Source of the DNA: a virus
Lineage: Duplodnaviria > Heunggongvirae > Uroviricota > Caudoviricetes
Virus record (IMG/VR): IMGVR_UViG_2703718850_000007
Direction: 5' to 3' (one strand)
Length of the DNA: 26,295 nucleotides
The translations under genes were made by a program, and so were the position numbers. How positions within the stretch are numbered: position 1 is the stretch's first letter; every line of letters starts with the position of its first letter. Positions 4,441 to 20,770 of the stretch are shown in pieces. Under the pieces are notes generated by a model. That model made no database searches, was not told where the DNA came from, and saw only the letters and a list, made by a program, of their open reading frames with translations.

Positions 4441-6665
<2,225 letters not shown>

Positions 6666-6685
<20 letters not shown>

Positions 6686-6996
6686 TCTCCCGCATATTGC
6701 CAGCATGGCTTTTAATGAGCCGCTGATGCTTGAACCCGCCTATGCGCGGGTTTTCTTTTGTGCGCTTGCAGGCCAGCTTGGGATCAGCCGCCTGACGGAT
6801 GCGGTGTCCGGCGACAGCCTGACTGCCCAGGAGGCACTCGCGACGCTGGCATTATCCGGTGATGATGACGGACCACGACAGGCCCGCAGTTATCAGGTCA
6901 TGAACGGCATCGCCGTGCTGCCGGTGTCCGGCACGCTGGTCAGCCGGACGCGGGCGCTGCAGCCGTACTCGGGGATGACCGGTTACAACGGCATTA
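6666..6996 (+). pseudogene. Head protease/scaffold (lambda gpC-like), N-terminal about 110 codons only
   Basis: GTG-initiated VTAELRNLPHIASMAFNEPLMLEPAYARVFF... matches the gpC N-terminus; identity ends at ...GYNGI, where the sequence becomes the reverse complement of the gpA N-terminal fragment. Confidence 0.85.
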
Positions 6997-8478
6997 GACG
7001 GATGCCCCTTTAATGGGGATCACCCGGAACAGCCCATGTTTTTTCGAGCGTTCATACACAATGGTCGGGTCAATCCCGCCAGTATCCCAGCAGATACGGG
7101 ATACCGACATTTCTGCACCATTCCGGCGGGTATAGGTTTTATTGATGGCCTCATCCACACGCAGCAGCGTCTGTTCATCGTCGTGGCGACCCATAATAAT
7201 CTGCCGGTCAATCAGCCAGCTTTCCTCACCCGGCCCCCATCCCCATACGCGCATTTCGTAGCGGTCCAGCTGGGAGTCGATACCGGCGGTCAGGTAAGCC
7301 ACACGGTCAGGAACGGGCGCTGAATAATGCTCTTTCCGCTCCGCCATCACCTCAGCATCCGGACGTTCGCCGATTTTCGCTTCCCATGTCTCACCGAGCG
7401 TGGTGTTCACGAAGGTTTTACGTTTTCCCGTATCCCCTTTCGTCTTCATCCAGTCTTTGACAATCTGCACCCAGGTGGTGAACGGGCTGTACGCCGTCCA
7501 GATGTGAAAGGTCACACTGTCCGGCGGCTCAATCTCTTCACCGGATGACGAAAACCAGAGAATGCCATCACGGGTCCAGATCCCGGTCTTTTCGCAGATA
7601 TAACGGGCATCAGTAAAGTCCAGCTCCTGCTGGCGGATGACGCAGGCATTATGCTCGCAGAGATAAAACACGCTGGAGGGGTCATCCGGCGTCCATTTGA
7701 GGCCAAACGGCGTCTCTTTGTCGCCAAATTTAAGATACTGCTCCTCCCCGCAGTGCGGGCAGGCAACATGAAAACGCATAAAATGCAGGGATTCACTGGC
7801 TGCACGCTCAATCTGGCAGGTGCCTCTCACTTTGGGCGTGGAGCCACGGATGGACTTTGGCCAGACCGAGCCTTCAATACGTTTGTCGCCAAGGAACGTC
7901 GGAGAGCCTTCCTGTTCAATATCCTCATCAAAGGCAGCAAGTTCATCATAACCCGCCACATCCACCGACTTTTCACGGTAGTTTTTTGCCGCTTTACCGC
8001 CCAGGCACCAGAAGCCACGACCATTGGAAAAACGCTTCATAGTGAGCGTGTTATCCCGGTGCTTTTTGCCATACCACGGAGCCAGCGCCAGCAGCGACGG
8101 AATATCGCGGATGGTCGGCTCAACGTGGGTTTTCATAAAGTTCTCGGCATCACCATCCGTCGGCAACCAGATAAGGGTGTTGCGCTGCTTATGCTCTATA
8201 AAGTAGGCATAAACACCCAGCAGCATTTTGGAATAACCGACACGGGCAGACTTCACCACATTCACCTCACGGATGTAGTCGCTGCCCATCGCATTCATGA
8301 TGGCCCGCTGAAAGGGCAGTGTTTCCCAGCGCCCTTCCTGGTATGCGGATTCTTTCGGGAGATAGTAATTAGCATCCGCCCATTCAACGGCGGTCTGTGG
8401 CTCCGGCCTGAACAGTGAGCGAAGCCCGGCGCGGACAAAATGCCGCAGCCTGTTAACCTGACTGTTCGATATATTCAC
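6994..8478 (-). pseudogene. Terminase large subunit (lambda gpA), N-terminal 494 codons, truncated
   Basis: MNISNSQVNRLRHFVRAGLRSLFRPEPQTAVEWADANYYLPKESAYQEGRW... ends at ...IPIKGASV followed by a stop created at the rearrangement junction; it overlaps the Nu1 3' end as in lambda. Confidence 0.9.
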
Positions 8479-9386: not shown

Positions 9387-9620
9387 ATGTCAACGAAGAA
9401 CAGAACCCGCAGAACAACAACCCGCAACATCCGCTTTCCTAACCAAATGATTGAACAAATTAACATCGCTCTTGAGCAAAAAGGGTCCGGGAATTTCTCA
9501 GCCTGGGTCATTGAAGCCTGCCGCCGGAGACTGTGCTCAGAAAAAAGAGTTTCTTCTGAAGCAAACAAAGAAAAGAGTGACATTACTGAATTGCTCAGAA
9601 AACAGGTCAGACCAGATTGA
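9387..9620 (+). CDS. ynfO: Small basic prophage protein (YnfO-like)
   Basis: 77-aa ORF between cos and ydfO; assigned by position and size from remembered K-12 Qin gene order; Arg/Thr-rich N-terminus. Confidence 0.5.
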   Translation: MSTKNRTRRTTTRNIRFPNQMIEQINIALEQKGSGNFSAWVIEACRRRLCSEKRVSSEANKEKSDITELLRKQVRPD

Positions 9621-9677
9621 AGCAATTTAGATAATCGTGCAGACTACGCCCCCTCATATCACATGGAAGGTTTATCT

Positions 9678-10088
9678 ATGGATCAGGTAGTCATTTTTAA
9701 ACAAATATTTGATAAAGTTCGAAACGATTTAAACTATCAATGGTTTTATTCTGAGCTAAAACGTCACAATGTCTCACATTACATTTACTATTTAGCCACA
9801 GAGAATGTTCATATTGTATTAAAAAATGATAATACAGTGTTATTAAAGGGCCTAAAAAACATTGTGTCTGTCAAATTTTCAAAGGATAGGCATCTTATAG
9901 AAACGACCTCTAATAAGCTGAAATCCAGAGAGATCACATTTCAGGAATACAGAAGAAACCTTGCTAAAGCAGGAGTTTTTCGGTGGGTTACAAATATCCA
10001 CGAACAAAAAAGATATTACTATACCTTTGATAATTCATTACTATTTACTGAAAGCATCCAGAAAACTACACAGATCTTACCACGCTAA
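9678..10088 (+). CDS. ydfO: DUF1398-family prophage protein YdfO
   Basis: 136 aa from the ATG at 9678 (GGAAGG upstream); [38 protein letters not shown]... Confidence 0.75.
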
Positions 10089-10239
10089 ACCATAACGTCC
10101 GGCTTCTCTCACTCCTGAGCCGGACTGCATTGGTTTAATAAAAACCATCAACAATTGTGATTTAGATATTCGGAACCATTCAAATATAACAAAACCCCGT
10201 AAAAACGAGGTTTATGGATAAATTTTATTATTGAATACA

Positions 10240-15120: not shown

Positions 15121-15837
15121 TTATCTCGTCACCTTCCTCAATTGCGCTTCCGCGTATGCTTCTTCCTGCCAGCACTTTGTTACCAGTTTACCAATGACGT
15201 CCGCATACCCCTTATACCACTGATAATCGGTCAGGTCTGGTACCAGCTTCTGGACATGACGTCGTGCCAGCGTGGTCGGTAAACGACTAAACCGGTTTCC
15301 ATTACAACGCCCACAAATCTTATATACCGGTACGCCATGAAACCGGGTTCTTTTTTCATCCAGAACAATCCCTTTACCCTTACACCCTCTGCACGCTGTG
15401 CTGGCTTCGCCCTTACCATGGCAATGCTGACATAGTTCCTTCACCCATTCTTCCTTGATTACAGATTCCCCGCGTCTGTAGTGTTTCACCACTTCGCGCA
15501 ATACATTATAAAATCCCGTACCTGAACAATGCTCACAGCGAGCCTTACTTGCCGCAGACCTGGAGTAATCAGCAAAGGCAAAACTCACGAGGTAAGGAAT
15601 AATCTGTAACCGGATTTCTTCACTCAATTTGTTCAATGTCGGGTTATCCAGTGCCATCGCGTAATTTAGCAGGCCTTCAATCGCAAACTGAGGGTCCTGA
15701 ACACCAACTTTTGCCAGAAATAAGGCCAACCCAAGTGGTGCTTTCGACTTCACCATCCCCTGCGCTGCCATTTCAACGCACACAGCATAGAGGCCATCTT
15801 CACAAAAAATTTTACGCAGTTCTTCGATGTTCATCAT
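15121..15837 (-). CDS. quuQ: Late-gene antiterminator Q (Q82-like, zinc-binding)
   Basis: 238 aa with a Cys-rich zinc-finger region (CEHCSGTGFY...CQHCHGKGEASTACRGCKGKG...CGRCNGN) typical of Q-family antiterminators, directly upstream of the PR'-like promoter. Confidence 0.8.
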   Translation of the reverse strand: MMNIEELRKIFCEDGLYAVCVEMAAQGMVKSKAPLGLALFLAKVGVQDPQFAIEGLLNYAMALDNPTLNKLSEEIRLQIIPYLVSFAFADYSRSAASKARCEHCSGTGFYNVLREVVKHYRRGESVIKEEWVKELCQHCHGKGEASTACRGCKGKGIVLDEKRTRFHGVPVYKICGRCNGNRFSRLPTTLARRHVQKLVPDLTDYQWYKGYADVIGKLVTKCWQEEAYAEAQLRKVTR

Positions 15838-17749: not shown

Positions 17750-19608
17750 CATTTCTGATAGTTAACATTACAAGATATAAGTAATGGACGCACTCCCAAT
17801 TAGTCTATTTAAATCGCCACGAGTTTAACTGACAACCCATGATCAATTATGAATTGCAACTATTTCTGTAGTCACTTTTGTGGGGACAGTCCACAAAACT
17901 GCCAACTTCCGCTTCTTGCTCTTAGCGGACATTAGCATAGGCTATTTACCATAACGCCTCATTACGCGCACCGCCCAGACTGACTCAGCGCGTTTCTGGC
18001 ATATCCCCGGTAAAACAAGTAACAAACCACCCGAAAATGAACACCAGAAACGCGACTTAAGAATCTACCCTATGAATGGATATGCACTCAACCGAATCGA
18101 TCTTGGTTTCAATCTTTTTTATCGGGATCAGGCTTCTTTTTAGGTAACTTCGGGGGCTTAACTTGCTGATGACTTTGCGTTCGGCGCGTAAGCCAGGGAT
18201 GGTCAGCTTTAGGTTTAACATAGTATTTTGAGCGTAAATCAATACGGGCATTATCCACTCGTTCATGGACACTCTTTTCATCATCCAGTGGTATAGGCTC
18301 CGGGCCATCAACATACTTTTCCCAGCCCAGCGCTTTCCCGTCATACAGAACGTTAATTTCACCGTCAAAGTTCTCGCATACAGTAACAACAGAATGCCTA
18401 AGTCGATATCCCCGGCCCTCACTGCGTACCTGAAACGCACTGCTTTTGTACTGGAAAGTGAGATTTTTAGACAGAACGCGCTTCGCCTGTAGGCTGAAGA
18501 TATAACCCAGTTCCTCTTCAGAATGGTGCACATCAAGATGAGCATTATCAGTAGTACGAGGCGACGTAGCGAACCGGTTGTTATAGGCTTCAATAAAGGT
18601 CGGCAACCATGCATTTGCTGTTTCAATATCACTGATATTCTGAAGCCGCATTTCTTTGACCAGCCTGTCCTGTAGTGTCTGATTGGCGCGCTCTACCCGC
18701 CCTTTTGCCTGCGGGCTGTTGGCATGGATTGGCTCGATGCCCAGTGTCTTTATCGCACGAGTGAACTGGGTCAGCTCACCTTCCCGCTCTGGGTTATTTA
18801 CCCTGAATATACTGTGTCTATCAGAGTAGAGAGCGAGCGGTACGCCATGATCATTAAGGTAACCCCGGAGGGTTTCCATGTAAGCCCGGGTTGTTTCAGC
18901 AGGCACAAAACGCAACGCCATCAACGCACTGGTGGCATCATCAATGAAAACGATCAGTGTACATCTGGGGCCTCGATTTTCAAACCAGTCATGAGGTGAG
19001 CCATCAATCTGGATCAGTTCACCGTAAGATGGTCGTCGCATGCGGCGTTGATATATACGGGCAATTTTACGACGGCGTTCACGCCATAACCCCTCTTCTA
19101 TCATCCACTTTCTGAGAGTTTCAACGGATAAAGATAAACCGTGTATCTCGCGCAATTTTTCGCACGCAAACGTAGGTCCAAAATCAGCGTAACGGCCTTT
19201 GAGGAGTGAAATTACTGTTGCTCTGAATTCAGTAGAAAAGGAATTATTAGGACGCTTTCCACGTCGGTGGGAAACCAGACCAGAAGGCCCTTCATTTCTA
19301 TACCGTTGCACCAGACGTTTAACCTGCCGAATAGAAATGCCAATGCGTGCCGCAGCTTGTTCCTGAATAATCTGAAGTCGGTGGAGTTCCTTATGACTCA
19401 TCGTAACAGTCTCTTTGATCATGAAAAATCCCCCAGAGAATTGTCTGGGGACATTTTAGAATGGTTCAAAGGGGACATTACAGCTTGGTGTTAACAATAG
19501 CCTGCTTCTCCGTGCCTTTCGGCACGTAAGAGGCTAACCTACATGTGTCTAGCATGAAATTGGCCTCAGATTAATGTTAAGCGTCTTGCAGGACGCGTAA
19601 TGTTAACT
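17750..19608. mobile_element. Insertion sequence carrying the single transposase gene; ends approximate
   Basis: A 12-bp perfect inverted repeat, AGTTAACATTAC (17750-17761) against GTAATGTTAACT (19597-19608), brackets the transposase gene. No target-site duplication was recognised, so the true termini are uncertain. Confidence 0.3.
18109..19422 (-). CDS. DDE transposase (rve integrase-core type, single-ORF IS; IS481/ISNCY-like, family not resolved)
   Basis: 437 aa; N-terminal HTH; DDE triad context IQIDGSPHDWF / LIVFIDDATS / PQAKGRVERANQTLQDRL; Lys/Pro-rich C-terminal tail. A 7-bp stem-loop (19431-19450) sits immediately upstream of the start codon. Confidence 0.85.
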   Translation of the reverse strand: MIKETVTMSHKELHRLQIIQEQAAARIGISIRQVKRLVQRYRNEGPSGLVSHRRGKRPNNSFSTEFRATVISLLKGRYADFGPTFACEKLREIHGLSLSVETLRKWMIEEGLWRERRRKIARIYQRRMRRPSYGELIQIDGSPHDWFENRGPRCTLIVFIDDATSALMALRFVPAETTRAYMETLRGYLNDHGVPLALYSDRHSIFRVNNPEREGELTQFTRAIKTLGIEPIHANSPQAKGRVERANQTLQDRLVKEMRLQNISDIETANAWLPTFIEAYNNRFATSPRTTDNAHLDVHHSEEELGYIFSLQAKRVLSKNLTFQYKSSAFQVRSEGRGYRLRHSVVTVCENFDGEINVLYDGKALGWEKYVDGPEPIPLDDEKSVHERVDNARIDLRSKYYVKPKADHPWLTRRTQSHQQVKPPKLPKKKPDPDKKD

Positions 19609-19756
19609 GGGGCTTTTCTCTATCTGCCGTTGGTGTCCATGCCCGAGGCAGATAGCCTCAAGCACCCGCAGTCATTCTACTTAACTAAGATTTCCCCGCA
19701 AACCGTTTTTGTCCAGCACAGTAAATATCCAACTAAACCAATGGAGTTCGCTGTAT

Positions 19757-19936
19757 TTACCGCCAGTATTCAATGCACATGACCGCCATGAACACCCCTA
19801 AAAAAAGGGCATTTATATATCCAAATATTAATATCAAAACATCAACTTTTTCCATATACCTTGCTGTGAAGATGATGGGCATACATGATGCGAACAACCA
19901 GAACGCAACAAACAAAAACTGCAATGCGTTTTTCAT
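19757..19936 (-). CDS. Hypothetical small two-TM membrane protein (59 aa)
   Basis: MKNALQFLFVAFWLFASCMPIIFTARYMEKVDVLILIFGYINALFLGVFMAVMCIEYWR; near-consensus RBS AGGAGG 5 nt upstream of the ATG; no family recognised. Confidence 0.5.
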   Translation of the reverse strand: MKNALQFLFVAFWLFASCMPIIFTARYMEKVDVLILIFGYINALFLGVFMAVMCIEYWR

Positions 19937-20190
19937 TATTCCTCCTACAATCAATGTGCAATTACATTTAAACACACCTCAATTTGGCCGGACATATAAA
20001 TATCTAAACCAGAAAAAATCACTTACATAGCGTTACAAACTCTTTAGTCTAAAGGTTCATCGTAAAACATTCCCCATACTTATCAGTCCGTTCCGCGCCA
20101 GGTAGCTCATTGCCTTATCTGGCAACCTGTAATCAGGTTTCCGCTTTTTCAGTTGGCTGGTCGTTTAACCGACATAGTTAATCCATTAAT

Positions 20191-20478
20191 CTAGTTGCCG
20201 GATGTTGGTGGATTTTCGCGTTTTAGTTGTTCATAAAAGTGCACAGCTTTAACCAGTTCTTCTGATGTAACTGGGACTGGTGAGGCAGTGAATAAGGCCT
20301 GAATTTGATAGTTCGGCCTGTCGTTACAATCCTCTTTTTTCGGTACATATTTCCAGTCACCAGACCACTACTTCCCCTGAAAGTCCGTAACGCCTTTTTT
20401 CACGTAGCGATATCGCCATGCCACTGGTTTTGCTTGCCCCGCCGTTTCATGCCCTTCCTGATAATTAATCTCGCTCAT
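20191..20478 (-). pseudogene. Hypothetical protein gene interrupted by an in-frame amber (TAG) codon at 20368-20370
   Basis: Hand-translation of the minus strand gives MSEINYQEGHETAGQAKPVAWRYRYVKKGVTDFQGK-TAG-WSGDWKYVPKKEDCNDRPNYQIQALFTASPVPVTSEELVKAVHFYEQLKRENPPTSGN, protein-like on both sides of the stop; it is transcribed divergently from ydfA. Confidence 0.45.
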
Positions 20479-20614
20479 TCATCGCCCCACTCATCACAAT
20501 ATGCTTCGACCGGAGTTTTTCCCGCTTCATAGTCATCACGCTAGGATTCGACATCAGCAGCACTTCCACCGCGTAACTCACCATACCCCAGCGTTAAGGG
20601 GAAATGAGGTCAGC

Positions 20615-20770
20615 ATGGATACTATCGATCTTGGCAACAACGAATCTCTGGTGTACGGCGTGTTTCCAAACCAGGACGGCACGTTCACCGCAATGACGTA
20701 TACCAAAAGCAAAACGTTTAAAACCGAAAATGGTGCCCGTCGCTGGCTGGAAAGAAACTCAGGTGAGTGA
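20615..20770 (+). CDS. ydfA: YdfA, first gene of the dicB operon
   Basis: 51 aa, MDTIDLGNNESLVYGVFPNQDGTFTAMTYTKSKTFKTENGARRWLERNSGE; GAGGT RBS. Confidence 0.8.
   Translation: MDTIDLGNNESLVYGVFPNQDGTFTAMTYTKSKTFKTENGARRWLERNSGE

Follow-up and report, generated by a model that had tools for sequence, protein, structure and literature searches.

A very probable pseudogene of a small lambdoid accessory gene, placed beside ydfA by a deletion in the cryptic prophage Qin

The minus-strand reading frame that lies beside ydfA in the stretch of DNA analysed here (26,295 nucleotides; hereafter, the window) is very probably the remains of a small lambdoid accessory gene, a pseudogene at 20057-20478 (minus strand) that no longer functions in the cryptic prophage Qin. 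Two in-frame amber codons (TAG37 and TAG96) and a 4-nt deletion deprive this copy of the uninterrupted frame of about 119-157 codons, and for this reason we regard it as a pseudogene derived from the protein family PHROG 660, and not as a functional member of that family. Its extent follows from the PGAP annotation of its counterparts, from alignment to an intact relative of 141 aa (protein P0005, DNA record L007) and from the match to PHROG 660. Namely, PGAP labels the counterpart of 20057-20478 a pseudogene in strains SCU-118 and ATCC 8739 ('hypothetical protein; frameshifted; internal stop'), meaning that it was already on record, and the annotated feature reaches 134 bases past the interval, 20191-20478, to which an earlier note on this DNA had drawn attention. 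Over the 701 bases around the pseudogene, strains SCU-118 and CPE35 match the window with 100% identity; in the remainder of the window, SCU-118 departs from it through structural changes. As for its surroundings, the window represents Qin, a cryptic lambdoid prophage of E. coli, with the order ydfJ/ydfI, tail, lysis and csp genes, Q, hokD-relBE, flxA and an ISNCY remnant, after which come ydfA-ydfB-ydfC-dicF-dicB-ydfD, an exonuclease gene, xis and int.

Lesions of the remnant and its protein family

Translated on the minus strand from 20478 to 20191, the interval reads MSEINYQEGHETAGQAKPVAWRYRYVKKGVTDFQGK, a stop, WSGDWKYVPKKEDCNDRPNYQIQALFTASPVPVTSEELVKAVHFYEQLKRENPPTSGN and a further stop; 36 codons precede the TAG at 20368-20370, and 58 more follow it up to the TAG at 20191-20193, exactly as the earlier note had described it. 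We placed the lesions by aligning the window with P0005 and its DNA, as well as with L008 (132 aa) and phage 689R5 (L004). At codon 37 (20368..20370, minus strand), the window has GAAG-TAG-TGG as against GAAG-CAG-TGG in L007 and L004, the ancestral codon being CAG (Gln), and L008 has ATG, so that each of these orthologous positions holds a sense codon. Homologues in general vary here (Q, M, L, P or S), and the residue that follows is a nearly invariant Trp. In an alignment of 51 sequences, TAG37 splits the conserved core of the family into two halves, and the structural model discussed below would put it at the predicted start of the second beta-strand of that core. At codon 96 (20191..20193, minus strand), the window has AAC-TAG-ATT as against AAT-CAG-GTT in L007 and L008, and the proteins P0002 and P0005 read SGNQ at this site, the ancestral codon again being CAG (Gln). 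What had been taken for the natural stop of the frame is, in other words, another acquired amber codon, beyond which the ancestral frame runs on to a TGA at 20057-20059 (minus strand), where ...GNVLR and its stop align with ...EDVLR and the stop of P0005. On the way there, the window lacks four nucleotides at 20149..20152 (minus strand; between 20151 and 20150, with a few bases of alignment ambiguity), reading GCCAACT, a four-base gap and GAAAAAGC as against GCCAGCCAACTGGAAAAAGC in L007. This deletion shifts the frame into a new TGA at 20149-20151; read in the shifted frame, the 32 C-terminal residues reappear as QLKKRKPDYRLPDKAMSYLARNGLISMGNVLR before the stop, compared with QLEKAKPDCKLPEKAMDYLKRNELISAEDVLR before the stop in the relative. 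The lengths agree as well, in that 426 − 4 = 422 nt is the exact extent of the PGAP pseudogene. The view that a single TAG interrupts the frame and that no frameshift is needed thus holds inside 20191-20478, but not for the gene overall, where TAG96 and the 4-nt deletion come in addition.

With Gln restored, the translation matches PHROG 660 with E=5.7e-29 over residues 2-93 (the same profile gives intact relatives E=2.9e-45 and 4.1e-48) and has 240 protein matches in a large protein collection, the top one being 97% identical with E=2e-56; consequently, the frame is far beyond what chance would produce. This homology of the joined sequence runs across both TAGs and, with the frame shifted, up to the ancestral stop. 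The intact relatives, collected by tblastn against phage records and by protein search, are 119-157 aa long and are common in lambdoid prophages of E. coli and Salmonella, occurring also in E. albertii; among the named ones are those of vB_EcoS-689R5 (URC08893.1, 119 aa) and mEp460 (VUD37832.1, 155 aa). All of them are labelled hypothetical, and the database class of PHROG 660 itself is 'unknown function'. The 51-sequence alignment shows a variable N-terminal extension, an invariant core (P.AWRYRYV ... DWKY ... E.CNDRP.Y.I..LF) and two alternative C-terminal modules. The invariant residues are P18, A20, W21, R22, Y23, R24, Y25 and V26, then D41, W42, K43 and Y44, and finally E49, C51, N52, D53, R54, P55, Y57, I59, L62 and F63. 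The window copy keeps every one of these invariant columns and has the core AWRYRYVKKG...W.GDWKYVP.KEDCNDRP.Y.IQALF in common with the proteins of 689R5, mEp460 and phage N15 (gp45); within this family of mosaic N-termini and two C-terminal modules, it comes from the long form ending in ...LISAEDVLR. Where the relatives are intact, however, the window copy has two amber codons and a 4-nt deletion.

The window copy differs from the family in 4 of the 59 columns whose conservation reaches 90% or more (T47K, E58Q, G74E, W103S), as compared with a median of 1 for intact members, some of which, having a divergent C-terminal module, depart at more of these columns than the window copy does. Such modest departures are consistent with relaxed constraint, although, taken alone, they are no strong evidence of it. 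The order of the mutations may be glimpsed from P0002, a protein of 109 aa that has Gln at both TAG positions and ends in ...KRPAN, exactly where the 4-nt deletion makes the stop in the window. This sequence comparison suggests that the frameshift came first and is older than the two amber mutations. As to how the amber codons arose, deamination of 5-methylcytosine at a Dcm site (CCWGG) was considered and rejected for TAG37, whose context, GCAGT, holds no such site; TAG96, to judge by its context, might or might not have come about in this way.

Searches for a function of the ancestral protein were negative throughout. Pfam gave no match to the homologues at E≤1, whether to a helix-turn-helix (HTH_3, P22_Cro), an anti-repressor or any other domain, and the NCBIfam models (likewise without an HTH or anti-repressor hit) and PADLOC models gave none either. 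An AlphaFold2 model of the intact 141-aa P0005, computed with the 51-sequence alignment as input, has a mean pLDDT of only 65.7 and shows, with modest confidence, three beta-strands (21-31, 37-45 and 58-64) forming a sheet, followed by helices. Foldseek searches of this model against BFVD and the PDB returned no match at E≤0.001, the best match being a sequence relative, N15 gp45, over 57 columns at 53% identity. Sequence-profile matches in the PDB were confined to designed helical repeats at E≈0.01, and we rejected them as spurious. These negative family and structure searches thus give no lead to what the ancestral protein did.

Ancestral gene order and the deletion beside ydfA

The less deleted Qin copies of ATCC 8739 and PhiR42_1 have, in order, dicA, dicC, a YdaT/cII-like gene, an O-like gene, DUF977, a methyltransferase gene, DUF7167 (a pseudogene there too), a gene of 58 aa and the PHROG 660 gene, and, further on, hok/sok, IS and flxA. 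The records L008-L010, whose PHROG 660 genes are intact, have the same order and continue with P63C, hok, rem, DUF968 (ydfU), rusA and Q. In all of these, about 3.7 kb separates ydfA from the PHROG 660 gene, with dicA, dicC and the replication genes in between, and the placement of the PHROG 660 gene in the relatives, 3' of the replication genes and after the DUF7167 and 58-aa genes, is that of the window gene. This conserved order identifies it as an accessory gene in the rightward early (PR-like) operon, where it stands between the replication genes and Q, outside the immunity region. What is more, the ATG of the pseudogene overlaps the stop codon of the upstream 58-aa gene (ATGA), an arrangement typical of translationally coupled strings of phage genes. 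The 58-aa neighbour (PHROG 519) is intact in L007-L010; in the window, its 3' remnant occupies 20475..20585 (minus strand), the 5' part having been truncated by a deletion. This remnant has an in-frame amber codon of its own, TGG→TAG at 20541-20543 (minus strand), where relatives have CCTGG, a Dcm methylation site. Since such sites are classic hotspots of 5-methylcytosine deamination, this route is plausible for that particular change.

Taken together, the comparisons, which directly show the homology, the lesions, the allele frequencies, the ancestral gene order and the deletion, lead to the following history. The ancestral gene encoded a PHROG 660 protein of about 141 aa within a long rightward early transcript coming from the dicC (cro-like) side. 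The order along this transcript was cro/dicC, YdaT-like, O-like, DUF977 and so on to DUF7167, the 58-aa gene and the PHROG 660 gene, the latter two probably coupled in translation through the ATGA overlap, with P63C, hok/sok, rem, ydfU, rusA and Q on the 3' side. The Qin lineage then gained the 4-nt deletion and two CAG→TAG transitions, at codons 37 and 96, all of which subsequently became fixed. As a result, translation begun at the ATG at 20478 would yield 36 residues and break off midway through the conserved core, that is, after AWRYRYV... and ahead of W.GDWKYVP.KEDCNDRP.Y.IQALF. Finally, in the window strain, a later deletion of 3.6 kb took away the upstream genes and the immunity region with dicA, dicC and their promoters, such that the dead gene lost its native promoter as well.

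The deletion was located by comparing the window base by base with ATCC 8739. Its junction, at 20584..20585, shows 2 nt of microhomology, and the missing segment of 3,629 bp corresponds to 4637-8265 of the ATCC 8739 record (L002). The losses comprise the 5' end of the 58-aa gene, the DUF7167 pseudogene, the methyltransferase, DUF977, O-like and YdaT-like genes, dicC, dicA and nearly all of the intergenic region between dicA and ydfA, while ydfABC-dicF-dicB-ydfD was left intact. The ATG of ydfA (20615, plus strand) stands only 30 nt from the junction, and the dead gene and ydfA are now divergent and 136 bp apart, the divergence being as the earlier note had it. A 45-mer across the junction is found in only 2 of 5426 genomes (SCU-118 and CPE35) and is absent from the other genomes, more than 900, with the same pseudogene allele. 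The pseudogene therefore adjoins ydfA only because a rare deletion removed dicA and dicC. In MG1655, by contrast, the segment with the PHROG 660 pseudogene has been lost entirely, ydfW-ydfX-dicC being contiguous, and this is why the pseudogene has no K-12 gene name. The decayed Qin genes that K-12 does have (ydfE, intQ and the ISNCY/ydfW remnant) are likewise non-functional, vertically inherited lambdoid leftovers, and they are annotated as pseudogenes or fragments.

Weighing other readings of the interrupted frame

Could the TAG be an error of base-calling or assembly in an otherwise intact gene? We compared alleles using 45-mers centred on the variant base in a megablast search with a 28-base word, under which only the matching allele can give a hit. 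The TAG37 45-mer is present exactly in 914 of 5426 complete E. coli genomes, all independently sequenced, and the CAG version with the same flanks in none of the 5426. The TAG96 45-mer follows the same pattern, being exact in 463 genomes of this collection (571 including near matches), again with no CAG version, and phage record PV340562 carries the same TAG-bearing sequence. It follows from these counts and from PV340562 that the lesions are fixed in the Qin lineage and that TAG37, identical in 914 genomes, is neither a sequencing error nor a recent event. Nothing was found in favour of an error, and its probability is, for practical purposes, nil; of the earlier description as a recent nonsense pseudogene, 'pseudogene' stands and 'recent' does not. 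The same stability, in more than 900 genomes, might be cited in favour of a functional gene expressed by amber suppression or by programmed read-through of TAG37, the more so because both in-frame TAGs stand for ancestral Gln codons, and a Gln-inserting suppressor (a supE-type tRNA-Gln) would give back the ancestral residues. However, read-through of TAG37 would only reach TAG96 and then the frameshift, both of which the TAG-bearing copies carry too, and this makes expression by suppression very unlikely. At codon 37, homologues have ordinary and variable sense codons, which argues that it is not a conserved recoding site, and a scan of the 26-kb window found no tRNA gene, suppressor or other. 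No single transition leads to an amber codon more commonly than CAG→TAG, upkeep in many genomes is what one expects of neutral DNA in a vertically inherited cryptic prophage, and in the window strain the native promoter and upstream operon of the pseudogene are deleted.

The remaining proposal is one of position: lying upstream of the dicB operon and divergent from it, the frame had been thought to sit where a repressor or anti-repressor would be. In the window, it is indeed close to ydfA, and the 36-codon ORF retains its ATG, so that the frame, or its 36-aa N-terminal fragment, might be imagined as a regulator of the ydfA-dicB operon or as a co-opted small protein. Yet the adjacency was born of a deletion seen in two genomes, and in the ancestral arrangement it is dicA and dicC that hold the ydfA side. 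Regulators of just this class are, moreover, already known in the same prophage. Experiments have shown the dicB operon to be controlled by DicA as repressor, DicC as Cro analogue and Rem as anti-repressor, and the stretch from dicA to ydfA contains dicBp with its operators (PMC10448788). DicA and DicC are HTH_3 and P22_Cro proteins, encoded between dicC and ydfA, and Rem is encoded near hokD; the PHROG 660 remnant, unlike these, has no HTH or other Pfam or NCBIfam domain and belongs to a different operon segment. The positional argument therefore fails, both on the origin of the adjacency and on the known roles of DicA, DicC and Rem. What is more, the 36-aa fragment is only half of the conserved core, and a scan of 19900-20700 on both strands found no sigma-70-like promoter. 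A regulatory or co-opted role is accordingly most improbable, and we come back to a pseudogene that probably gives no functional product, as the lack of a promoter-like site and the deletion of the upstream operon suggest. That said, the 36-codon N-terminal ORF may still be transcribed or translated at some residual level. One can also think of the TAG allele as having been kept in more than 900 genomes through low-level read-through or some activity of the 36-aa peptide, and of the remnant or its antisense strand as then affecting, in the rare lineage deleted for dicA and dicC, a ydfA-dicF-dicB operon that is now without regulators, but we give these ideas only a slender chance.

Further features of this Qin copy and what they mean

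Several other features of the window may be recorded here. At 15121-15837 (minus strand), there is an in-frame fusion ORF of 238 aa that joins the first 22 codons of rem, the gene of the DicA anti-repressor, to ydfT, a Q-type antiterminator gene, from about codon 35 onwards. It stems from a deletion of about 1.7 kb in which a hypothetical gene and ydfU were also lost, and its junction is found in only one complete genome, N61. Since N61 has this junction but not that of the dicA/dicC deletion, the window strain combines two rare deletions, and through the two of them its Qin has lost DicA, DicC and most of Rem while keeping ydfABC-dicF-dicB-ydfD. In the late-gene remnants, the stretches 4442-7909 and 9436-10094 (tail/terminase remnant) have, by BLAST comparison, no counterpart in the Qin of SCU-118; the window strain is therefore structurally unlike its closest complete-genome relative in this part.

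The region between the ISNCY remnant and the pseudogene holds features of its own. A sok antitoxin RNA (Rfam RF01794) scores 104 bits at 19496-19667 (minus strand), the gathering score being 59; it marks a hok/sok-type locus that has no PGAP annotation, borders on the ISNCY element where that element ends, near 19478, and was apparently truncated by it. At 18109-19422 (minus strand), a continuous ORF of 437 codons matches the transposase family PHROG 8463 at full length; PGAP splits this ORF, in the near-identical SCU-118, into a 'partial ISNCY transposase, missing C-terminus' and a 49-aa 'protein YdfW'. At 19757-19936 (minus strand) lies an unannotated ORF of 59 codons (MKNALQFLFVAFWLFASCMPIIF...EYWR), which has a strong Shine-Dalgarno sequence (AGGAGG) and encodes two hydrophobic segments. 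This ORF has no match in PHROG, is 98-100% conserved in three phage records, once under the label 'hornerin', and may be a genuine gene for a small membrane protein.

As for the pseudogene, it is a case of routine gene decay in a cryptic prophage, one that the standard NCBI pipeline had already flagged, and in itself it matters little. It does illustrate how the neighbours of a gene can be a false guide in a degraded prophage, what looked like a repressor's place having been made by a rare deletion. More interesting than the pseudogene are the incidental points, in that DicA, DicC, most of Rem and the promoter region of dicB are gone from this Qin. Losing these while ydfABC-dicF-dicB-ydfD is kept is one way in which a host can neutralise a toxic prophage operon.
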